Below are positions 1 through 34,094 of a DNA stretch of 49,621 nt, in pieces. The notes below the pieces were generated by a model that was not told where the DNA came from, did not search any database, and saw nothing but the letters and a program-made list of their open reading frames with translations. Source of the DNA: Minisyncoccota bacterium (lineage in GTDB: Bacteria; Patescibacteriota; Minisyncoccia; Minisyncoccales; PWPS01); NCBI GenBank assembly GCA_021734685.1, contig JAIPIL010000001.1, forward strand, positions 1 to 49,621. Reading direction: 5' to 3'. A program made the translations under genes and the position numbers. Within the stretch, counting starts at the first letter, position 1. Every line of letters begins with the position of its first letter.

Positions 1-127
1 AAAAAAATAAAAAATGTAATGAAAAAATTTCTGTTTTGGTTTGCCGTAGCGGAGCGGAGGCAAGCGGAAACGCACCTCATTATTCTGGATTCTGTTCAAA
101 AAAAGTTAGAATTTCAACCAAAAGGTA

Positions 128-282
128 CCGCCAATTTACAATTTCAGAGTTTTCGGAAGTTTTACGCACCTGCGGTGCGGTCGGCTCGCCTGCGGGCGAG
201 GCTGAAAGGGCTGATTTTGAAAGGATTTGCCACGCTCCGCGTGGCGAAAAAGAAATGTTTTGGTTTTGGATTTGGAAGTTCG
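128..282. repeat. Left copy of 155-bp inverted repeat bounding the serine recombinase gene
   Basis: About 97% identical (4 mismatches) to the reverse complement of 1790..1944. Contains two tandem mini-hairpins sharing a CTGCGG core (cgcacctgcggtgcg, ctcgcctgcgggcgag) and the palindrome gccacgctccgcgtggc. Confidence 0.85.
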
Positions 283-384
283 TTTGGGCGTTGCCCAAAG
301 CAAAACAAAGTTTTGCAACCAATCTTTTTTTGTTTCGCCTTTGGCGAAACATGGAAGCGATAATTTTTAATAATATTTTGACTT

Positions 385-2073
385 ATGACAAACTCAAATA
401 ATACAAAAGAACAAACCAGAAAGTTTTTCATCTACGCCCGCAAATCTACTGATTCAGAAGATCGGCAAGTGCGAAGTATTGGCGACCAGATTTCTGAATT
501 GAAAGAATTGGCGAAAAAGGAAAATTTGGAAATTATTGATACTATCGTGGAAAAACAAACCGCCAAGAAACCTGGTCGCCCCTTGTTTGCCGAAATGTTG
601 AAAAAACTTGAAGCGGGCGAAGCTGTGGGAATTTTAGCTTGGCACCCCGATAGATTGGCAAGAAATAGCGTAGATGGCGGACAAATTATCTATCTTGTAG
701 ATACTGGCGTAATTCAAGAGCTAAAATTTCCAACTTTCTGGTTTGATCCTACTCCGCAAGGCAAATTTATGCTTTCAATCGCTTTCGGACAGTCAAAATA
801 TTATGTTGATAATCTTTCGGAGAATATCAAGCGAGGTCATCGGCAAAAATTGAAAAATGGCTTATGGCCTCAAATGGCTCCGCTTGGATATTTGAATAAT
901 AAAGAAACAAAACAGATTTATGTTGATAAAGAAAAATCGCCATTTATCGAAAAGGCATTTGAGGCATACGCCACTGGCAACTATACTTTAAAAAATCTCC
1001 GAAAGAAAATCAACGACTTGGGACTTGTCGGCAAGAAAGGCAAAATGCTTTCCGTTTCAAATTATCAATATCTTTTACAAAATCCATTTTACTATGGACT
1101 TATCCGCTATGGTGGTGAATTTTACGAAGGAAAGCATAAGCCGATTATTTCAAAGAAACTTTTTGACGAAGTGCAAGAAGTGATGAAAAGGAAATCTAAA
1201 CCGCAGAAAGTGAAAAAGATGAAATTTTTTCTTTATCGTGGATTTTTTAAGTGCGGTGAATGTGGATTTACAATCACAGCAGATAAGAAAATCAAGAAAA
1301 GCGGAAAAGAATATATTTACTACTACTGCACCAAGAAAAATCCACATCACCAATGCACGCAAAATGTTTTTACGAGAGAAGAAAAAATTTCATCTCAAAT
1401 TAGCGAGGAACTTCAAAAAGTTTCTTTGCCTGATGATTGCGCTGATTGGATGATCAAGGAATTGAAAAAAGAGAAAATCCAATCCAGCAAATCATCAGAC
1501 TTTTTTGTTCAAAAGACAGAAAAGGAACTTTCAAAACTTGATGAGAAGTTGGAAAAACTAATGAACGCATATTTGGAAAGTGTTTTGAATATTAGTGAAT
1601 ACCAAAAAGCAAAAAATTTTCTCATCAATCAAAAACAAGTTTTGAAAGACAAATTAAACGCTTTTGAACTAAAAAGTAATAATCGGTTCGAACTCGCCGA
1701 CAAGTTTATAAAAGACAGTAAACAAGCCAAAATTATCGCTTCCAAAGAAAATCCCGAAGGGATTCGGGATTTTCTAAAAAAGATTGGTTCGAACTTCCAA
1801 ATCCAAAACCAAAACATTTCTTTTTTGCCACGCGGAGCGTGGCAAATCGTTGCAAAATCAGCCCTTTCAGCCTCGCCCGCAGGCGAGGCGACCGCACCGC
1901 AGGTGCGTAAAACTTCCGAAAACTCTGAAATTGTAAATTGGCGGAGAGGGCGGGATTCGAACCCGCAAGTCCTTGCGGACGGCGGTTTTCAAAACCGCTG
2001 GAATAGCCGTTATCCGACCTCTCCTTTTGGGGTAAATATTCCCCATGTCCAACCCCGGGTTGGACATGGGTGA
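385..2073 (+). CDS. Large serine recombinase (resolvase/invertase catalytic domain + recombinase domain + zinc ribbon + coiled coil)
   Basis: N-terminal YARKST(D)...RQ...GDQ...RLARN motifs with the catalytic Ser, a Cys-rich CGECG...YYYC...HHQC zinc ribbon, and a long coiled-coil tail. The ORF has no stop until 2073, so the last ~95 codons are read from the right inverted repeat and antisense tRNA-Ser. The functional C-terminus is probably near 1790 or earlier. Confidence 0.85.
   Translation: MTNSNNTKEQTRKFFIYARKSTDSEDRQVRSIGDQISELKELAKKENLEIIDTIVEKQTAKKPGRPLFAEMLKKLEAGEAVGILAWHPDRLARNSVDGGQIIYLVDTGVIQELKFPTFWFDPTPQGKFMLSIAFGQSKYYVDNLSENIKRGHRQKLKNGLWPQMAPLGYLNNKETKQIYVDKEKSPFIEKAFEAYATGNYTLKNLRKKINDLGLVGKKGKMLSVSNYQYLLQNPFYYGLIRYGGEFYEGKHKPIISKKLFDEVQEVMKRKSKPQKVKKMKFFLYRGFFKCGECGFTITADKKIKKSGKEYIYYYCTKKNPHHQCTQNVFTREEKISSQISEELQKVSLPDDCADWMIKELKKEKIQSSKSSDFFVQKTEKELSKLDEKLEKLMNAYLESVLNISEYQKAKNFLINQKQVLKDKLNAFELKSNNRFELADKFIKDSKQAKIIASKENPEGIRDFLKKIGSNFQIQNQNISFLPRGAWQIVAKSALSASPAGEATAPQVRKTSENSEIVNWRRGRDSNPQVLADGGFQNRWNSRYPTSPFGVNIPHVQPRVGHG
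1790..1944. repeat. Right copy of 155-bp inverted repeat; its outer end overlaps the 3' end of tRNA-Ser(TGA)
   Basis: Reverse complement matches 128..282. The last 6 nt (ggcgg/tggcgg) coincide with the tRNA-Ser acceptor end. Confidence 0.85.
1939..2024 (-). tRNA. tRNA-Ser (anticodon TGA), CCA encoded
   Basis: Hand-folded cloverleaf: acceptor ggagagg/cctctcc, anticodon loop tTTGAaa, long variable arm, T-loop GGTTCGAATCC. Confidence 0.8.
2041..2070. repeat. REP-like perfect palindrome CCCATGTCCAACC-CCG-GGTTGGACATGGG (copy 1 of 4)
   Basis: Same palindrome at 25827..25855 (degenerate), 48854..48890 and 49591..49620. The last two flank a RAYT transposase gene. Confidence 0.8.
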
Positions 2074-2076
2074 TTT

Positions 2077-2164
2077 TGGCGGAGGAGGTGGGATTCGAAC
2101 CCACGTGGGCGTTAACCCTGCACATTAGCAGTGTGCCGCAATAGACCAACTATGCGACTCCTCC
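2077..2164 (-). tRNA. tRNA-Ser (anticodon GCT), CCA encoded
   Basis: Acceptor ggaggag/ctcctcc, anticodon loop ctGCTaa, long variable arm, GGTTCGAATCC T-loop. Confidence 0.8.
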
Positions 2165-2240
2165 ACTGAATAACGGATTTATTATATCTTAATTTCCATA
2201 TATTTTCAAATATTTAATGATACAAGTTGGATTTAAAGAA

Positions 2241-2448: not shown

Positions 2449-4557
2449 ATGAACTTCTCTACTTCTGTTTTAGAAATCTCTGGAGTTGGCCCAGCCAACA
2501 AGAAGAAATTGGAAAAGCTAAAGATAAAAACTGTTGGCGATCTTTTGTTTTATTTTCCGCGCCGATATGAAAACTTTTCTCAAAAAAGTTCTGTTGCTTC
2601 AATCTATAACAAGGGAAAATACACTATTGAAGGAAAGGTTATTAAGACAAATACTGATGTGACGATCGGGAGGAGAATTGCTATTTTTGAAATAATTATA
2701 AAAGACGAAACGGGAGAGATAAAAGCTGTTTGGTTTAATCAACCCTATTTAAAAGAAAAGATAAAAGAAGGAGATGAGATTGTTCTTTCGGGAGCAGTTA
2801 ATTTTTCTAAAGACGGCTTACAATTTTCAAATCCTTTTTTCCGAAAGCTAAACTCTGATGAAGATGCTTTTGATATAATCTCTATATACTCCGAACAAGG
2901 AGCAGTCACCTCTTCTTTTCTCCGTTCTGTTATTAAGAAAGCTCTCTCTGGGATAAACATTCAAAACAAGGAAACCCTCCCTGTCGAAGTTGTTAAAAAA
3001 AATAACCTTCTTTCTTTATCAAAGGCACTAAACGAAGTTCACTTTCCGTCTTCAACTAACAGTCTAAAGAAAGCAAAGAGAAGATTTTCTTTTGAAAGAA
3101 TCTTTCTTCTCCAACTTTTCATACTAGAGCAGAAGATCGCCATCTCTAAGAAAAAGGGGGTTCCTGTTCCAGTTGATATTGAAAAAGTTAAAGATCTTGT
3201 TGACGGCCTTCCGTTTACCTTGACCGATGCTCAAAAAAAGGCGTCTTGGCAGATTCTTAAAGATATAGAGAAAAACACTCCGATGAACCGTCTTCTTGAG
3301 GGAGATGTTGGTTCTGGAAAGACGATTGTTGCAACAATCGCTTCTCTCGCGGTAATAAAAGCTGGTTATCAGGTTGCGCTGATGGCTCCAACGGAAGTTC
3401 TCTCAAGGCAACACTTTGATGAGATAGCAAAACTACTCTGGCGTTTCAAGATTGATATCGGTCTTCTTACCGGAAAAAAAGATAAGATAAGGTCAAAAAG
3501 ATTAAAGGGAGATACTTTTGAAGTCTCCAGGGAAAAGCTTCAAGAAAAAGTGGAAGAAGGAAAGGTGGACCTGTTGGTGGGAACTCACACCTTAATACAA
3601 GACAAAGTGAAGTTTAAAAATCTTGCTCTTGTTATTGTTGATGAACAACAAAGATTTGGGGTAGAACAGCGAGCAAAACTGTGCTTAAAAAAAGATTCTT
3701 TTATTCCTCACCTCCTCTCAATGACTGCAACTCCGATCCCAAGAACCCTTGCCCTTACCCTTTACGGCGATCTTGATCTCTCGGTTATTGATGAGATGCC
3801 CGAAGAAAGAAAACCGATAATAACTGAGCTGGTCTCTCCCAAAAAAAGAGAGGATGCTTACCTGAAGATAAAAGAAGAGATAAAGAAAGGAAGGCAGTGC
3901 TTTTTCATCTGTCCGCGGATTGAAGATCCTGACAAAAAACCTGCTGATGGAAAAAAATCACCGTGGGCAAACTTGAAATCAGTTGAAAAAGAGAAAGAGA
4001 GGCTTGCAACAGAAGTTTTTCCAGAATTTAAAGTTGAAGGGCTACACGGAAAGATGAAGAACTCTGAGAAAGAGAAAGTGATGAAAGATTTCAGAGATAA
4101 AAAGATAGATCTTCTTGTTTCAACTTCTGTTATAGAAGTCGGGGTTGATGTTAAAAACGCAAGCATAATGGTCATTGAGGGCGCGGAGATGTTTGGCTTA
4201 TCACAACTTCACCAGTTTCGGGGAAGAGTTGGAAGAAGTGATATTCAGTCATACTGCTTTTTGTTTACAAGTTCGTGGAACGAGAAGATAAAACAACGAT
4301 TAAAAGCACTTTTAACTTCAAAAAACGGATTTGAGTTAGCAGAAAAAGATCTTGAGATAAGAGGCCCCGGTGATTTTATCGGGAAAAAGCAGTGGGGGTA
4401 TGATGACTTCACGATGAAAGCCTTGAAAGATCCTGTCTTGGTTGAGAGTGCGAGAGAAACAGCGAAAGATATTCTTGAGGAAGATCCCGGTTTAAAGAAA
4501 AACTCTCTTTTGAGAAAGAGAGTTGATCTACTAAAGAGAAAGATACATCTTGAGTAG
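2449..4557 (+). CDS. recG: ATP-dependent DNA helicase RecG
   Basis: N-terminal wedge/OB domain, helicase motif I GDVGSGKT and motif II VDEQQRFG, C-terminal helicase domain. Start set to ATG 2449, because the GTG at 2440 overlaps the tRNA. Confidence 0.85.
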   Translation: MNFSTSVLEISGVGPANKKKLEKLKIKTVGDLLFYFPRRYENFSQKSSVASIYNKGKYTIEGKVIKTNTDVTIGRRIAIFEIIIKDETGEIKAVWFNQPYLKEKIKEGDEIVLSGAVNFSKDGLQFSNPFFRKLNSDEDAFDIISIYSEQGAVTSSFLRSVIKKALSGINIQNKETLPVEVVKKNNLLSLSKALNEVHFPSSTNSLKKAKRRFSFERIFLLQLFILEQKIAISKKKGVPVPVDIEKVKDLVDGLPFTLTDAQKKASWQILKDIEKNTPMNRLLEGDVGSGKTIVATIASLAVIKAGYQVALMAPTEVLSRQHFDEIAKLLWRFKIDIGLLTGKKDKIRSKRLKGDTFEVSREKLQEKVEEGKVDLLVGTHTLIQDKVKFKNLALVIVDEQQRFGVEQRAKLCLKKDSFIPHLLSMTATPIPRTLALTLYGDLDLSVIDEMPEERKPIITELVSPKKREDAYLKIKEEIKKGRQCFFICPRIEDPDKKPADGKKSPWANLKSVEKEKERLATEVFPEFKVEGLHGKMKNSEKEKVMKDFRDKKIDLLVSTSVIEVGVDVKNASIMVIEGAEMFGLSQLHQFRGRVGRSDIQSYCFLFTSSWNEKIKQRLKALLTSKNGFELAEKDLEIRGPGDFIGKKQWGYDDFTMKALKDPVLVESARETAKDILEEDPGLKKNSLLRKRVDLLKRKIHLE

Positions 4558-8511: not shown

Positions 8512-11010
8512 TTAGATACAAATAACTGATACTAATTTATCTCCTTTGTTTAGTTTCATCATTCTTGCTCCTTGAGTTATTCTTGATTGAACAGGGATGT
8601 TGGAAAGATTTACTCTTATAACTTTTCCTTTTTGTGAGACCATCATCACATCACTTTCAATAGTTAGTGTTCTTAATGCTGCAACCTCTCCGATCTTTTT
8701 TGTGTTTTTAACGGTTTTAACTCCCATTCCTCCTCTTTTTTGAGCACGATAACTCTTGGTTTTTATTCTCTTTCCATATCCGTTTTTGGTCATAATTAAC
8801 AAGTAAGAACCATCAACGCTTTCTTTTTCAATTATTGACACATCAGCAACGCCATCATCCTTTTCTTTAATGTTTATTCCTCGCACTCCTCCTGCTTGTC
8901 TTCCCATTGCACGAACTTCTTTCTCGTTAAAACGAATCAGTTTTCCTTTTTTTGTTGCAATTGCAATCTCATCGCTTCCACTTGTCTTTCTTACTCGGCA
9001 AACTTCATCATCTTCTTTCAGTGTAATTGCAATCAATCCGGATCTACGAATATTAACAAACTCTTTCAACTGTGTTTTTTTGATAATACCTTTTTTTGTT
9101 ATTATTATCAAATTTTTATCACTAACTGTTTCTTCCTTCTCTAAAGGAATAACTGCCAACACTTTCTCTTCTGGTGATATCTCTAAAAAGTTTAACAACC
9201 CTCTTCCTCTTGCGGTTCTGACTCCTTCAGGAATCTGATAAACTGGAATCCTGAAAACTTTTCCGCTATCAGTAAAGAATAAAAGAAAATCGTGAGTCAT
9301 TGCTTCTATGAAGTGATCAACAACATCTTCTTTTCCGGTCTTCATTCCCAGCATTCCTTTTCCTCCTCTTTTTTGCGCCTTGTATGTTGCTGGGTTTATT
9401 CTCTTAATATATCCTCCTTGCGTTATTGTGACAATTGTTGGTTCTTGAGGAATAAGATCAAGATCATTAACTTTCTTTAGTCCTTTTTCGTTAACTTTGG
9501 TTCTTCTCTCATCATTAAACATCTCCTTCATTTCAAGAAGTTCTTTTTTAACAATCTCCATAATCTTCTTATCGCTTGCAAGAATTGCAGTAAGTCTTTT
9601 TATAATTGCTTGCTTCTCTTTCAACTCGTCTTCTATTTCTTTCTTCTCCATCTTCGCTAATTTTTGCAACTTCATCTCCAAAATCGCATCTGCTTGAATT
9701 TCTGTAAACTCAAACTTCTTTATTAAGTTCTGTTTTGCATTCTCTTTATTTTCTGATCCTTTAATTGTTTTTATTATCTCGTCTATATGAGAAAGTGCCT
9801 TGTAAAGCCCTTCTAGTATGTGGGCTCTATCTTTTGCTTTTTGTAAATCAAACTTGGTTCTTCTTATAATCACCTGATTGCGGTAATCAATATAATAACG
9901 GAGAAGCTCTGCTAGCCCCATCACTCTTGGCTGAATTCCATCAATTAAGGCGATCATATTAAGATGAAACTTTTCTTGTAGTGATGAAAAACTGTAAAGA
10001 CGGTTCAGTATCTTGCGGGGATAAGCACTTGATTTCAATTCAAAAACAATTCTCATTCCTTCTCGGTCTGACTCGTCTCGGATATCTTTTATTCCGTCTA
10101 ACTTCTTCTTCTGAACAAGTTTTGCAAAATCTTGAACAAGTTTTGCTTTTCTTACTCGGTAAGGAATTTCAGTAATAATAATTTGAGTTTTTCCTTTTTC
10201 TTCAACCACTTCTGCTTTCCCTCTGATTGTAATAGATCCTCTTCCTTGTGAGTAGGCAGAAATAATATCTTCTTTGTTGTATATTTCTCCTCCAGTAGGA
10301 AAGTCTGGTCCTTTCACAAACTGAAAAAGATCTTCAGTGTCTGCTTTTGGATTTTCAATAAGGTGAACGGTTGCGTCAACAATTTCTCCAATGTTGTGTG
10401 GAGGAATGTTTGTTGCCATTCCTACTGCTATTCCGAGAGAACCGTTTAAAAGAAGTTGAGGGACAGGAGAAGGAAGAACTGTTGGTTCTTTTTTTGTTCC
10501 ATCATAATTTGATATAAAGTCAACTGTTTCTTTCTGAATATCCTGAAGCATTATCTCTCCCATCTTTGAAAGACGAGCCTCACTGTAACGCATAGCGGAT
10601 GGAGGATCCCCATCAACTGATCCAAAGTTTCCTTGTCCTTGGACTAGGGGGTAGCGCATTGAGAAGTCTTGTGCCATTAGCACCATAGAGTGATAAACTG
10701 CCATATCTCCGTGAGGATGATACCTTGCTAAAGTTGAACCAACCACACTCGCTGACTTTCTATATTTTGCACTGTGAGTAATTCCATCTTCTTTCATCGC
10801 ATATAAAATTCTGCGGTGAACTGGTTTTAATCCATCACGAACATCAGGAAGGGCTCTTCCAACAATAACCGACATCGCATAATCCATATACGATTCTTGC
10901 ATCTCTATTGTAATATCTCTCGGTTTCACATATCCGATCTCTGCCCCTAACTCTTTCTTTTCTTCTCCACCAGCGTTTTGTTCTTTATTTGTGTTGTCTT
11001 TATTTTTCAT
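8512..11010 (-). CDS. gyrA: DNA gyrase subunit A
   Basis: N-terminal active-site region [28 protein letters not shown], catalytic Tyr region, and a C-terminal beta-pinwheel with the GyrA-box QKRGGKG. Confidence 0.9.
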
Positions 11011-11017
11011 TGTTTTT

Positions 11018-11683
11018 TTATTTTAACTTTGGAATTAAAGGAATTACTTTCATATCTATAGACGGAAGTTTGTTTTCTTCTATCTCTAACTCTTCTTCTT
11101 TTTTAACTTCCTTTTCTCCTATCGCTTTTAAGAATGGAGACAGATCATCTATATCAAGATCAAGTCCTTCAATCTTGTAGTGCATCGGAATAACGACTCT
11201 TGGTTCAATCTGAGAAATCACTCCAGTTGCTTCTTTTGCATCTATTGTGTAAACACCTCCAACTGGAATCATAAGAACATCAACTTCTCCAATCTCTTTC
11301 ATCTGTTCAGTGCTTAACTCTTTTTCTCCAAAATCACCAAGATGACACAATCTTACTCCGTCTATTTCTAATGTATAAATAGTATTCAGTCCTCTTTTTG
11401 CTCCTTTTTCTTGATCATGATAAGACTGAGTTCCTTGAATAAAAACATTGTGCAGTTCATATTCTCCAGGATTGTCTATGACAAAAGGATTACCCTTCAC
11501 TCCTTTTATATTATTATGATCAGAGTGATTATGTGTAACAAGCACTACGCTTGCTTCTATTTCGGGAAGTTTCAACCCTGTCTTTTCATCAAAAGGGTCT
11601 ATTAAGATAGACACTTTTTCTTTATTCTTTTTTTTCTGAATAGTTATCAGAAAACAAGATTGTCCGTACCAAGTAATGTTCAT
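11018..11683 (-). CDS. MBL-fold metallo-hydrolase
   Basis: HNHSDHN metal-binding motif (HxHxDH) and the ILIDPF start typical of UPF0173/YtkL-like MBL proteins. Confidence 0.7.
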
Positions 11684-23536: not shown

Positions 23537-23558
23537 ATTTACTTAAATTAACCAGTTG

Positions 23559-23642
23559 CGGAGAGAGCGGGACTTGAACCCGCAAGTCCTTGCGGACACC
23601 GATTTTCGAAATCGGCGGAATAGCCAGTTATCCGATCTCTCC
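23559..23642 (-). tRNA. tRNA-Ser (anticodon CGA)
   Basis: Acceptor ggagaga/tctctcc, anticodon loop ttCGAaa, long variable arm. Confidence 0.8.
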
Positions 23643-30759: not shown

Positions 30760-31878
30760 TTAGTTTTTTATAGGCATTATAATATAAAGAAAGTCTTCTT
30801 TATTTACTGGCCTTAAAATTCCTGGACTACTTTCGTTATTTATTTCAAAAACAACCTCTGAGTCTTTTATATTAGAAAGACCATCTAAAATAAATCTATA
30901 ATTAAAAGAGACACTAACACTCTCTCCCTCTGCTTTTCCTGATATTTTTGTTTCGTAATTACCTAACTCATTGTTGTTACTTTTAATAACAACTTCTTGT
31001 TTTTCAGAATCCACATCTAATATAACTTCATTTATTTTGCTTGTAAAAATACTTGATGCTTTTATTTTATTTAGGAATTCATCCTTATTTAATATTATTT
31101 TCGTTTTTAACTCTTTCGGAATAATACTTTGATAGTCTGGATAATTTCCTTCTATTATTTTTGATGTGAGCTCAATATGAGAGTGATTAAAATCATCCAT
31201 TTTTAATTTAAATAATATCTGATTATCTCCAAAAATAATTTCTATCTCTTTGTTTACTTCTTTAAAAATATTAACAACTTCTCTTGCTGTTCTCTGAGGA
31301 ATAATAACAGAAAAATCATCTATTTTTTCTTGTATTTTTATTTTCTTTTCAGCTAATCGGTAACTGTCAGTTGCTACTAAATATATTTTTTTATTTTTTA
31401 AAGAAAAAAGAACTCCTGATATTTCTGGTTTAACTTTAGACATTGAAGGAATGTCTATAATTTGCAATAATGCTTCGCATAAATCTTTACTATTTAAAAC
31501 TATTTTTTGTTTCTCTTCTGTTTTAGGAATAATTGGAAATTCTTCTACATCAACACCATTTATTTGTGTTTTATAATCATCACAGTCTAAAAGAATATTA
31601 TTATCTTTTGTTTTTAAGGTTATTTTCTTATTTGGAAGAAGATTAATAAAAGAAGAGAATGAATTATAAGGAATAACGACTTCTCCATGATCTTCTATTT
31701 TTCCTAATGTCCAATATTTTATTGCTATATCTAAATCAGTTGCTGAAAAGCTAATAAAATCATCTTCTGTTTTTATTAATATGTTTTTTAAAACAGGAAG
31801 TGATATTGATTTAGATGATGCTCTTCCGATAATACTTAATCCTTCTTTTAATTTATTTTGTAGTAAATTTATAATCAT
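30760..31878 (-). CDS. dnaN: DNA polymerase III beta sliding clamp
   Basis: Three-domain clamp pattern. Sits immediately downstream of dnaA on the same strand. Confidence 0.85.
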   Translation of the reverse strand: MIINLLQNKLKEGLSIIGRASSKSISLPVLKNILIKTEDDFISFSATDLDIAIKYWTLGKIEDHGEVVIPYNSFSSFINLLPNKKITLKTKDNNILLDCDDYKTQINGVDVEEFPIIPKTEEKQKIVLNSKDLCEALLQIIDIPSMSKVKPEISGVLFSLKNKKIYLVATDSYRLAEKKIKIQEKIDDFSVIIPQRTAREVVNIFKEVNKEIEIIFGDNQILFKLKMDDFNHSHIELTSKIIEGNYPDYQSIIPKELKTKIILNKDEFLNKIKASSIFTSKINEVILDVDSEKQEVVIKSNNNELGNYETKISGKAEGESVSVSFNYRFILDGLSNIKDSEVVFEINNESSPGILRPVNKEDFLYIIMPIKN

Positions 31879-32069
31879 AATATTAAATTAATTTATTAAC
31901 TAGTAGTTATTAGTACACTTGATAACTTGTAAATCCTTTTGTTTAAAGGGTTTTTTTATAAGGAAAAAAGATTAAAAAAGTGTTGAAAAGTGTTAAGTAA
32001 AAAAATCACCTGAATTTTAAATGTTTTTTTAACCTCTTTTCCACAACATCTTAACACCTCTACACTTCT

Positions 32070-33443
32070 TTACATTGAAAATAAACTTTCCCTTATGTGT
32101 GATATTTCTTCTTTTATCTCATTATTACTTTTTATCTCTCTCTCTATTTTAGAAAAAGAGTAAATTACTGTTGTATGATCTTTTCCGCCAATTTTTTTGC
32201 CAATATAAGGATAAGAGTAATTTAACTCTTTTCTTAAAAAGTATATTATAATCTGCCTTGACTTTGCAATTTCTTTTTTTCGGGAAGGGCCCATTATGTC
32301 TTTTTCATTAGTGTCATAAAAACTAGTAACTGCTTTTATAATTTTATCAAAAGAAAAATTAGACAAATTAGATTGGTTTATATTATTTAAAACAAGTTTT
32401 GCTGCTTCTATATTAATAGGTTTTTTTAATACCTGTTGATTAATTATTAATTTATTTAAAACTCCTTCAAGTTCTCTTATACTTCTTTGTATATTATCAG
32501 CAATAAAATAACAAACTTCGTCAGGAACATAGAAATCTTTCTCTTCAGCTTTTGTTTTTAAAATAGCTGCTCTTGTATCAGTATCAGGATTTCCAATGTC
32601 AACAATCATTCCTCCTTCAAATCTTGACCTTAGTCTGTCTGCTAAAGAACTAATAGATCGGGGTGGTCTATCAGAAGAAAGAATAATCTGTTTATTTTTT
32701 TCATATAAATTATTAAAAGTGTGAAAGAATTCTTCTTGTGTTTTTTCTTTATTAGAAAGAAATTGAATATCATCAATAATTAAAACATCAATATCTTTAT
32801 ATCTGTATTTAAAATCATCCATCTTGTTGTTTCTAATAGAAGATATTATTTCAGATATAAATTTTTGTGCTTGAACATAAAGAACTTTTTTTCCTTGAAA
32901 ATCATTTTTTATTTTATTTCCAATTGCTTGGATAAGGTGAGTTTTTCCTAGTCCAGTTTTACTGTAAATAAAAAAAGGATTATATAAAGATCCAGGATTT
33001 TCTGAAACAGCAGATCCTGCAGCATGAGCAAGTTCATTAAAAGGACCAACAACAAAATTATCAAAATTATATTTAGGATTTAACCCAGTTTCACTGTCAA
33101 TTGTCATTTCTGGAAATTCCATCTGGTTTTCAGAGTTTTCAACTTGTTTTTCATTAGAAGAGTTTTTATTATTAGAAACAGGAGGTAAAGAGTTGGGACT
33201 TATTATATATTCTATTTTTTTAATATTTTTATTTATCCTTTTTACTGTTTCTAGTATTTTTTTATGATATCTACTTTGAATCCAGTCTCTGACAAAGGTG
33301 CTTGGAACAGAAACGACAACTATGTCTTTTTTTATTTCAAAAATACTTGTGTTTTTAAACCAAGTGTTAAAACTTGCATCAGAAACATCAAGCTGAATTT
33401 CAGCAAGAACAGATTTCCAAAGATTTTCTTTTTCTATAAACAT
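32070..33443 (-). CDS. dnaA: Chromosomal replication initiator DnaA
   Basis: AAA+ Walker A GLGKTHL, Walker B, and a C-terminal DnaA-box binding domain. Confidence 0.9.
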   Translation of the reverse strand: MFIEKENLWKSVLAEIQLDVSDASFNTWFKNTSIFEIKKDIVVVSVPSTFVRDWIQSRYHKKILETVKRINKNIKKIEYIISPNSLPPVSNNKNSSNEKQVENSENQMEFPEMTIDSETGLNPKYNFDNFVVGPFNELAHAAGSAVSENPGSLYNPFFIYSKTGLGKTHLIQAIGNKIKNDFQGKKVLYVQAQKFISEIISSIRNNKMDDFKYRYKDIDVLIIDDIQFLSNKEKTQEEFFHTFNNLYEKNKQIILSSDRPPRSISSLADRLRSRFEGGMIVDIGNPDTDTRAAILKTKAEEKDFYVPDEVCYFIADNIQRSIRELEGVLNKLIINQQVLKKPINIEAAKLVLNNINQSNLSNFSFDKIIKAVTSFYDTNEKDIMGPSRKKEIAKSRQIIIYFLRKELNYSYPYIGKKIGGKDHTTVIYSFSKIEREIKSNNEIKEEISHIRESLFSM

Positions 33444-33597
33444 AAGGATATAAACTTAAAATTACTATATCATATTATAATTAATTGTGGAAAACTACTA
33501 AAATGGGAAAAAGTTGTGGATAACTTGTTAAAAATAACTAAAGATTGACTTATTTTACTATATAGAGTAATATATTGTTAAGTTAAAAGATAAATTT
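33444..33597. promoter_or_regulatory. Probable oriC (dnaA-rpmH intergenic region) with DnaA boxes and an AT-rich unwinding element
   Basis: Perfect DnaA box TGTGGATAA (= TTATCCACA) at about 33515..33523, a one-mismatch box TGTGGAAAA at 33486..33494, and an AT-rich stretch at 33451..33485. Another TTTTCCACA box lies at about 32036..32046 on the other side of dnaA. Confidence 0.6.
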
Positions 33598-33729
33598 ATG
33601 TTTTCCAGAGTACTTAAAAAAAGAAAAAGAAAAAAGACTCACGGATTTTTAGTTAGAAAAAGAACTAAAGGTGGGTGCAGTGTTCTAAAAAGAAGAATAA
33701 AGAAAGGAAGAAAAAAAATATCAGCATAG
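33598..33729 (+). CDS. rpmH: 50S ribosomal protein L34
   Basis: A 43-aa ORF that is not in the supplied track: MFSRVLKKRKRKKTHGFLVRKRTKGGCSVLKRRIKKGRKKISA. It matches the L34 pattern KRKR..THGF...G..VL.RRR.KGRK. Confidence 0.85.
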   Translation: MFSRVLKKRKRKKTHGFLVRKRTKGGCSVLKRRIKKGRKKISA

Positions 33730-33756
33730 ATTCTAATCTCTAAGATATTGTTTTTT

Positions 33757-34094
33757 ATGTTTCCTCAAAAAAATAGGTTACGAAAAAGAAAAGAGTTTGA
33801 GGATGTATTCAAAAAAGGAAAAACCTTTTTTGCTTCTTTTTTTTTGTAAAAATAAAAGAGAATAGTTTTAACTTCTCTAGATTTGCCTTTGTTGTTCCTA
33901 AAAAAGTAGAGAAAAAAGCAGTTGAAAGAAATAGAACAAAAAGAATGATGAGAGAAATTTTTAAAGAGTTTTCGGTTTGTTTTAATAGAAGTGTAGATTT
34001 GATTTTTATTACTCAAAAAAAAATAAATAAAGAAGATAGAGAAAAAGCAAAAAAGGAAGTAGAAAGAATTTTAAAAAAAGCAAAATTAATATGA
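33757..34094 (+). pseudogene. rnpA: RNase P protein component RnpA, interrupted by a frameshift at a T9 homopolymer (33837..33845)
   Basis: Frame 0 gives MFPQKNRLRKRKEFEDVFKKGKTFFASFFL then a stop at 33847. The -1 frame continues ...VKIKENSFNFSRFAFVVPKKVEKKAVERNRTKRMMREI...KLI to 34094. One extra T restores a full-length ~112-aa RnpA. Confidence 0.7.

Follow-up and report, generated by a model that had tools for sequence, protein, structure and literature searches.

The left end of contig JAIPIL010000001.1, from the Minisyncoccota bacterium assembly GCA_021734685.1, carries an open reading frame (ORF) for a large serine recombinase (LSR) that is enclosed by two long inverted arms, a on the left and a' on the right, and that runs head-on into two tRNA-Ser genes. 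The analysed stretch of 49,621 nucleotides (nt), positions 1 to 49,621 of the forward strand, is referred to as the window throughout. Upstream of arm a, the first 127 nt of the window belong to an arm of a second inverted pair, b and b', which is recognised by comparison with related loci, and the arms of the two pairs meet at a short core, CCGCC(A). We consider this region, with somewhat better than even confidence, to be the integrase module of an integrative element that has two parts and inserts at the 3' ends of tRNA-Ser genes. The attachment sites of such an element are denoted attP (on the element), attB (in the target), and attL and attR (at the junctions), with P- and B-type half-sites. 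The features of the locus are as follows.

1..127, plus strand: core-proximal 127 nt of arm b', P-type arm of an internal attP-like site
83–127 (stop at 80–82), minus strand: tail codons YLLVEILTFFEQNPE, in the LSR frame only when a' is joined to b
128..282, plus strand: left arm a, the P'-type arm and the last 52 in-arm codons of the LSR in inverted copy
128..133, plus strand: core CCGCCA of the internal site b'-core-a, the sole sequence common to all three site types
165–179, 185–200, and 229–245, no strand: three short G+C-rich hairpins, mirrored at 1827–1907 in the right arm
283..384, plus strand: spacer from arm a to the start of the LSR, presumed promoter region
385..2073, plus strand: LSR, 562 amino acids (aa) in the integrated state (ORF and domain calls)
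within 385..2073: LSR domains, namely Resolvase (aa 15–160), Recombinase (aa 183–269), and zinc ribbon (aa 283–343)
1790..1944, plus strand: right arm a', P'-type arm of an attL-like junction, coding (LSR codons 469–520; the codons past 520 are antisense tRNA)
1939..1944, minus strand: core CCGCCA at the 3' end of tRNA-Ser(TGA), comprising the last two acceptor-stem bases, the discriminator G, and CCA
1939..2024, minus strand: tRNA-Ser(TGA) (ARAGORN), occupied target with the B-type half-site, gene intact
2077..2164, minus strand: tRNA-Ser(GCT) (ARAGORN), also ending in CCGCCA, a potential target that is unoccupied, with a terminator-like hairpin after it
2181..2209, minus strand: promoter-like TTGAAA-17-TATAAT upstream of both tRNA-Ser genes, an 11/12 match to the consensus and identified by that match only

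Arms a and a' are each 155 nt long and 97% complementary, with four mismatches at 184/1888, 220/1852, 223/1849, and 246/1826. The repeat search that located them agrees in full with the first-pass annotation, which had described the pair at 128–282 and 1790–1944 from the sequence by itself. No further copy of the 155-nt arm is present in the 49.6-kb window. The same annotation had placed the outer six nucleotides of the right arm (tggcgg, 1939–1944) on the CCGCCA end of tRNA-Ser(TGA) and had seen two tRNA-Ser genes adjoining the recombinase, and ARAGORN returns both genes at 1939–2024 and 2077–2164. Transcription from the promoter-like site at 2209–2181 would enter the LSR gene in the antisense direction. 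The window is very dense in tRNA genes, with 18 in 49.6 kb, three of them for serine; this density and the low G+C content of the genome (~35%) agree with an origin in Patescibacteria. In addition to the two genes just described, tRNA-Ser(CGA) lies at 23558–23642 and ends in ...CTCTCCGCA-ACTGG; it has neither an encoded CCA nor a CCGCC core and is unoccupied.

The hairpins within the arms had attracted attention on account of a shared CTGCGG and had been put forward as possible binding subsites for the recombinase. The two in question, 165–179 (cgcacc-tgc-ggtgcg) and 185–200 (ctcgcc-tgcg-ggcgag), are both real, but the proposed role is unlikely: they are located in the most variable part of the arm, where it codes for a non-conserved linker, and other element families differ. 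Arms of every family do contain one to three short G+C-rich hairpins, with sequences differing from one family to another. The third hairpin of the window (229–245, CCACGC-NNN-GCGTGG) is conserved and encodes the peptide PRGAW.

The protein encoded by 385..2073 is a large serine recombinase on domain grounds, with matches above the gathering scores to PF00239, PF07508, and PF13408 (Zn_ribbon_recom), that is, to the Resolvase, Recombinase, and zinc-ribbon segments listed above; the initial identification of the gene is thereby borne out. A predicted catalytic-serine motif, FIYARKSTDSEDRQ, read from the translation at aa 15–28, fits Y-x-R-x-S-T, and its residues R19, K20, S21, and T22 are conserved at 90% or more in an alignment of 18 sequences. 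The nearest solved structure is that of the C-terminal domain of the A118/LI integrase with an attP half-site (4KIS, E=8e-9). Enzymes of this type carry a coiled-coil motif within the zinc-ribbon domain; in the region of the LSR that aligns with the A118 domain, a low-confidence AlphaFold2 model computed from an 18-sequence alignment (mean pLDDT 49.5, pTM 0.30) places two long helices, at aa 350–397 and 403–446. Identity to any annotated phage or plasmid enzyme does not exceed 33%. A small DNA invertase of the Hin/Gin/Cin/Pin type was considered and rejected, in view of the length of the ORF (562 aa) and its recombinase and zinc-ribbon domains; the JGI designation 'DNA invertase Pin-like' is an automatic label. 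The spacer preceding the gene (283..384) contains a conserved ORF on neither strand, and its plus strand has no strong promoter match. A separate small gene on the minus strand (80..352) was likewise rejected, as its start is not conserved and, of 76 distinct spacers, only about half keep the frame open for at least 30 codons before the arm.

Relatives of this recombinase are numerous. A scan of one representative genome per species yielded at least 534 of them, from which 80 loci were taken for analysis, and the description of the layout given below rests on ~200 related loci. A protein search returned thousands of relatives, the best 120 clusters being 61–96% identical to the window protein, mainly from Patescibacteria, and often located on contigs of 1.8–2.4 kb. 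Inverted arms of 120–155 nt, mostly 98–100% identical, surround the homologue in ~60 of the 80 genome loci, which come from independent metagenome-assembled genomes (MAGs), so that copies of the unit, for which a search among relatives had been suggested, are plentiful. In the arm-flanked loci the outer ends of both arms read CCGCC(A), or CCGCA in some families, and the right arm adjoins the T-arm and acceptor end of a convergent tRNA. A convergent tRNA-Ser is found at the 3' end of the LSR gene in 68 of 100 cases (GCT 22, GGA 22, CGA 13, TGA 10, and ACT 1), non-Ser targets being confined to distant relatives. The target tRNA is still complete, as ARAGORN calls a full tRNA-Ser ending in CCGCCA. 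Some element families with a CCGCA core (e.g., L013 and L078) sit at tRNA-Ser genes of the type found at 23558–23642, so that core and target co-vary. Copies 92–95% identical to that of the window lie beside different tRNA-Ser genes in otherwise unrelated flanks; the unit is therefore mobile, and the original suggestion of a mobile LSR element at the 3' end of a tRNA-Ser gene, with the repeats as part of its recombination apparatus, stands. The same architecture is present in a 993-kb complete chromosome (L058) and in a 706-kb contig.

One part of the first description did not survive this comparison, namely that of a minimal 1.8-kb element with the repeats as its ends. The sequence to the left of arm a is also kept between unrelated loci: positions 1–127 of the window, the end of b', match the sequence preceding the left arm in L004, L005, L006, L007, L027, and many others, and the 22-mer at 111–132, comprising the last 17 nt of b' and CCGCC, occurs in more than 120 metagenome contigs. 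Since this conserved flank is part of b', the a/a' repeats are not the ends of the element. In the related loci, the order is flank, GGCGG-b, cargo, b'-CCGCC-a, LSR, a'-GGCGG, tRNA-Ser. Arms b and b' are 200–359 nt long and 1.9–6 kb apart (L058, L073, L050, L067, L064, L078, L018, L040, and L081), and the inner b' arm overlaps arm a by 3–5 nt at the CCGCC core (e.g., in L058 and L081). In L081, the inverted b arms occupy 3593–3951 and 9382–9740 (359 nt, 5.4 kb apart) and the a arms 9738–9892 and 11406–11560. The element is bounded by the tRNA at one end and by the outer b arm at the far end, the latter edge being drawn from the end of the b arm and the divergence of the flanks. As the contig of the window begins inside b', the rest of this arm, the cargo, and the outer b arm lie off the contig. 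Searches for identical proteins, made with the window LSR and with RecG in two versions that differ in their start, gave no hit.

The cargo opens next to b' with a gene for an XRE-type helix-turn-helix protein of 64–94 aa, directed away from the recombinase (45 joints). It is followed by a Fic protein in L058, a TdeIII endonuclease in L005, three methyltransferases in L081, a type III restriction-modification system with an AAA_13 ATPase in L095, a TaqI endonuclease with a LexA/S24-methylase fusion in L205, and a RadC-C5-methylase fusion with an HpaII endonuclease in L043. Because the cargo almost always consists of an XRE regulator with restriction-modification or other defence genes, the family is a candidate for a main route of defence-gene exchange in the reduced genomes of Patescibacteria. 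The island described from MAG nzgw456 (PMC12455944), a type I system, was rejected as a counterpart of the L043 element, in which the cassette beside the recombinase is that of HpaII. Each b arm of L081 has an internal pair of 33-nt inverted repeats with a 21-nt spacer (3700–3786 and 9547–9633), which may be an operator for the adjacent XRE gene. In L149 (1–181) and L171, a-type arms from different recombinase families are attached to one and the same b arm, and in L149 one cargo lies between the arms of two recombinases that are 59% identical to each other; arms and cargo seem, from these arrangements, to be reshuffled at the core.

Several contigs (L087, L092, L105, L135, L142, and the window) end inside b', ~125–127 nt before the core, or at the core itself. 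The assembly graph apparently branches right after the core, and Patescibacteria contigs therefore often stop at the LSR gene; the two nested inverted repeats thus account for many such contig ends.

Three kinds of junction are found in these elements. With T standing for the tRNA end, c for the core, and X' for the unique flank, they are T·c·a, b'·c·a, which is inverted with respect to the other two, and b'·c·X'. This set matches the products expected of attP = b'·c·a and attB = T·c·X', and on that basis T·c·a is read as attL-like, b'·c·a as an internal inverted attP-like site, and b'·c·X' as attR-like. Under this assignment, the 155-bp inverted repeat would represent two copies of the P' arm, and the longer b/b' repeat two copies of the P arm. 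In the more than 120 contigs mentioned above, CCGCC(A) is followed either by an a-type arm, of several families, or by a unique flank, with immediate divergence, and several of the unique flanks after b'-core open with a hairpin and a T-run, like the sequence that follows tRNA genes. The motif GTTCGAA ends 11 nt from the core in the tRNA, where it forms part of the T-loop, and 16 nt from it in b', a pattern taken from the nucleotide sequence. In the A118/LI integrase system, the zinc-ribbon motif reportedly lies 5 bp further out in attP than in attB, so that a short core shared by attP and attB, together with a 5-bp shift of the motif, appears to fit the LSR pattern. The core holds the palindromic dinucleotides CG and GC. 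A palindromic attP of the form a'-core-a, inserting as a simple unit, was rejected, as b' forms the left flank and the cores of the two ends are in inverted rather than direct orientation.

Two loci depart from the common right end. In L002 (~1865) and L087 (~1944), arm a' adjoins GTTCTAGACCGATGTAGC placed immediately before CCGCC, a sequence that is not a tRNA and that looks like an insertion at a pseudo-site; the two arms of L002 are different variants, only 83.5% identical. In turn, the copy on the 706-kb contig L003 is rearranged and probably dead: at 3914–4029, an inverted b arm runs into the recombinase gene at approximately codon 7, the point of fusion being a microhomology of 14 nt (AGAAA[G/T]TTTTTCAT).

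The right arm is both a recombination arm and coding sequence. As had been remarked in the first-pass annotation, the recombinase frame stays open through the arm and the antisense tRNA (ORF 385..2073), and the C terminus of the integrated form reads RGRDSNPQ..., which are antisense tRNA codons. The LSR frame is free of stops in arm a' in 45 of 46 loci, compared with 16 and 15 of 46 for the other two frames, and its stop codon lies 0–208 nt beyond the core in these 46 loci. The inner third of the arm encodes a conserved ...GSNFQI...F.PRGAW, and the middle, hypervariable between loci, a non-conserved linker. The two arms of one locus are the same variant, and the loci differ from each other.

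When the same frame is read into b rather than into the tRNA, it encodes W-R-[YC]-x-L-x-[EK]-[IV]-[RL]-[TMN]-[FY]-F-x-[QE]-N-P-[DE] and stops after 15–19 codons. This b-encoded tail is common to all families, down to relatives of 42–60% identity. Tail codons 9–15, which lie past any expected 25-bp half-site, have entropies of 0.42, 0.33, and 1.22 at positions 1, 2, and 3, and the proline codon uses four different third bases. The LSR frame is the only one that is both free of stops and marked by conservative replacements in the tail (mean BLOSUM62 of +0.13 vs −0.70), a comparison made on a set selected by the tail motif, the family-wide tail alignment being the unbiased view. We take the tail to be coding because of its stops, its conservative replacements, and its continuity with the recombinase frame. 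Integration at the tRNA is, from the reading frames, predicted to swap the C terminus of the LSR, with antisense-tRNA codons taking the place of the 15–19-aa tail.

Forms in which a' is joined to b are present in the data. The b-tail terminates the protein in approximately 20 of the top 120 homologue clusters, including the three closest to the window (P0001–P0003, 535 aa each). In the 37-kb contig L204, tRNA-Leu and tRNA-Ser(GGA) are followed by core-a, the spacer, and an LSR with the b-tail; the arms of this locus are 135 nt long and 89.6% identical, shorter than the assembler k of 141. In L205, the LSR leads through a'-core'-b to the cargo, the XRE gene, and b', and the arms are 81.5% identical. 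Because L204 and L205 are resolved and the tail codons are under selection, the evidence indicates that the joint of a' to b is a real stage of the element.

In canonical LSR systems, integration proceeds by recombination of attP with attB, and excision needs a directionality factor. We can envisage the free form of the present element as a circle running from a through the spacer and the LSR to a'·c'·b, on through the cargo to the XRE gene and b'·c, and back to a. The recombinase and cargo segments of this circle would be set apart by two inverted copies of attP. If the copy within the 3' end of the LSR gene recombined with a tRNA-Ser attB, the common arrangement would result, as in the window, with exchange of the tail, and this exchange would probably alter or shut off the activity of the enzyme. 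Use of the other attP would lead to the L204 type, in which the gene is intact and has the same direction as the tRNA. The excess of the common type could arise if a gene that has exchanged its tail and is transcribed toward a tRNA operon with a strong promoter does less harm than an enzyme that is active beside an intact attP in a genome with other tRNA-Ser targets. The arrangement of L010, where a tRNA-Ser gene is present on both sides of the recombinase, and that of L011, which has a tRNA-like 3' end upstream as well, would be expected had the internal attP recombined with a second tRNA-Ser gene.

A wider proposal can be offered only tentatively, and we think it improbable as it stands: that these elements form a distinct two-segment class whose circle has two identical, inverted attP sites, one of them within the 3' end of the recombinase gene, in which the tail swap would set activity or direction without a directionality factor, the spare attP would serve for rebuilding of the gene or for reuse, and the whole would be a main vehicle of restriction-modification systems in Patescibacteria.

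A number of observations weigh against the reading of the region as the integrase module of a two-part element. The model describes a duplicated attP and gives no reason for it, or for the 98–100% identity of its copies; the middle of the arm diverges fast between loci while the copies within a locus stay 98–100% identical. Gene conversion between the arms is the simplest answer to the latter, and it would also permit occasional inversion. An empty target site is absent among the 209 loci included in the search for one, no closed circular contig was recovered, and no candidate for a directionality factor was recognised in the cargo. The AlphaFold2 model is too poor to inform on the C-terminal tail. 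One antisense frame shares the third-position periodicity of the tail, and since its signal is equal, codon periodicity was discarded as proof of the tail frame. Among the contigs with a b-tail, the majority begin within an arm and have arms that are 100% identical, so that these joints could be assembly paths and not real molecules. Finally, L172 is plainly a symmetric contig, with the 5' end of a recombinase at both ends of the cargo, and all four relative orientations of recombinase and cargo are seen at least once (L095 and L207; L205 and L156; L172), which a simple two-attP circle without inversion does not predict. The census of junctions as evidence for inversion was itself downgraded, since L172 is symmetric and since L095 and L207–L209 start 114–119 nt into an arm whose partner is 100% identical.

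These last points bear on an alternative that we consider unlikely, namely a self-inverting cassette in which the arms are inversion sites and the gene is flipped by the recombinase or by host RecA acting on 155 bp of identity. In one orientation, the gene would acquire the b tail and stand downstream of the tRNA promoter and upstream of the XRE gene and cargo, whereas in the orientation of the window it would carry the antisense-tRNA cap and face the convergent tRNA, so that the recombinase, and perhaps the defence cargo, would be switched on and off. The layout is that of the Hin switch, where a recombinase gene also lies within inverted repeats, and the concerted evolution of the arms requires ongoing exchange between them. 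The strong promoter-like site directs the tRNAs toward the cassette. A tRNA-Ser gene upstream of the recombinase and in the same direction is found in three loci (L204, L032, and L010), although alternative integration explains L204 equally well. In L095 and L207, LSR, a'-core'-b, XRE, and cargo follow one another in a single direction; however, the arms of these two loci are 100% identical and the contigs start within an arm, so that the path is not settled by the assembly. The orientation itself is strongly biased: the 3' end of the LSR gene faces a tRNA-like end in 72 loci and b in 4, and the joint between XRE, b', a, and the 5' end of the LSR was counted 45 times, against a single flipped joint. 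Furthermore, sites of the attL type are not known to synapse with attP among LSRs.

An autonomous transposon of 1.8 kb resembling an insertion sequence (IS), with the recombinase as its transposase, the arms as terminal inverted repeats, and insertion at tRNA ends, is very improbable. It would account for highly similar copies across many genomes and for a gene whose 3' end falls within a terminal repeat, a trait of many insertion sequences. The homologues on contigs of 1.8–2.4 kb would also suit it, but short contigs are the expected assembler output at repeats of this size. The candidate was rejected on the ground that the flank beyond arm a is conserved across loci as part of the second, cargo-enclosing arm pair; moreover, at no locus does the a...a' unit stand alone in a context that is neither tRNA nor b, target-site duplication is absent, the two ends having the core in inverted and not in direct orientation, and the conserved tail of the gene lies outside the arms. 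An IS607-family serine transposon was also set aside in view of the LSR domain order, the long inverted arms, and the failure to see tnpB nearby.

A repeat that plays no part in recombination, whether as tRNA-flanking DNA duplicated passively or as an artefact of assembly, is scarcely credible: the window does start 127 nt before the left arm, a contig break at the structure, and inverted chimeras are known in metagenome assemblies, but the architecture recurs in dozens of independent assemblies, including the chromosome L058 and the 706-kb contig, the window arms differ at four positions, arms co-vary within loci, the sequence of 128–282 was not found in relatives without a nearby recombinase, as such a duplication would have it, and the same layout is kept in the 42%-identity relatives L041 and L066, which target tRNA-Ala.

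Taken as the integrase module of a two-part integrative element, the locus can be compared with several known systems. The element behaves like a tRNA-targeting integrative island, and its anatomy is solid and widespread. The LSRs of phages and integrative elements (A118/LI, phiC31, Bxb1, TP901-1, and SPbeta SprA) have the same domain set, with homology to the A118 integrase, and likewise a short shared core, a 5-bp shift between B and P half-sites, and a target gene left intact. Unlike them, the window-type element retains an intact, inverted second attP, resulting in perfect repeats of 120–360 bp; its ORF crosses the crossover point, and a directionality factor is not evident. An attP located inside the integrase gene itself is known from intP/intX of the Myxococcus phage Mx8 and from archaeal integrases of the SSV1 type, where integration similarly changes or splits the integrase coding sequence, SSV1 also targeting a tRNA gene. 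These enzymes are, however, tyrosine recombinases, and they have no inverted spare attP.

The circle proposed above resembles the yeast 2-micron plasmid, in which FLP acts on an FRT site in each of two 599-bp inverted repeats; in both cases two unique segments, one of them encoding the recombinase, lie between long identical inverted repeats that each hold a target site. FLP is a tyrosine recombinase whose free inversion amplifies a replicating plasmid, whereas window-type elements show a strong orientation bias, their circle is conjectural, and no replication gene was seen in them. The likeness to Hin is restricted to the position of a serine recombinase gene within inverted repeats: invertases such as Hin and Gin have ~190 aa, a C-terminal helix-turn-helix, 26-bp sites, and an enhancer bound by Fis, in contrast to the 520–535 aa and the tRNA target of the window-type LSR.

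Tycheposons and other tRNA-targeting islands are similar in being small cargo islands at tRNA genes, with site-specific recombinases, in streamlined genomes. We know of no inverted-arm architecture among them. The hosts differ, and the window-type cargo is nearly always XRE with restriction-modification or defence genes. Large serine recombinases are mentioned for this group in a preprint (bioRxiv 10.1101/2020.12.28.424599). Full-text literature searches found no published description of the inverted double-arm LSR layout.

Mobile elements of the Patescibacteria (Candidate Phyla Radiation) have been little described, and the LSR family reported here occurs in at least 534 places and in many metagenomes. 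If the proposed tail swap is true, an LSR C terminus that depends on the state of the DNA would be a new way of controlling directionality, a question central both to LSRs and to their use in genome engineering. Both the putative attB, at the tRNA-Ser 3' end, and the putative attP, b'-core-a, are defined sharply enough for synthesis and direct testing.

A few relatives extend the range of hosts and contexts. In L041 (5623–8985) and L066 (4882–8279), a recombinase relative of ~42% identity has the same double-arm layout and stands directly beside an element of the tRNA-Ser type, giving three or four inverted-repeat units in a row; the unit in L041 adjoins tRNA-Ala(GGC), and its core, CCACCA, is the 3' end of that tRNA. 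On a 253-kb scaffold deposited as candidate division TA06 there is a copy (L023/L082) of 76% identity, with arms of 134 nt and tRNA-Ser(CGA) as its target. Its neighbours encode Por_Secre_tail, Peptidase_C25, and MMPL domains, and a Transposase_mut gene occupies the cargo position; this copy suggests transfer outside the Patescibacteria. On the IMG/VR contig L083 (1–11380), a 59%-identical recombinase lies beside phage genes, for an amidase, a LysM protein, an SU10 adaptor, and BppU. It has neither inverted arms nor a b-type tail and is the only such relative from the scan of viral contigs, and it implies that relatives of the window LSR can also serve as prophage integrases. Elsewhere in the window, the G+C content falls to 0.23–0.26 at 31001–34000, compared with ~0.33–0.40 in the remainder, and this segment may be another acquired island.

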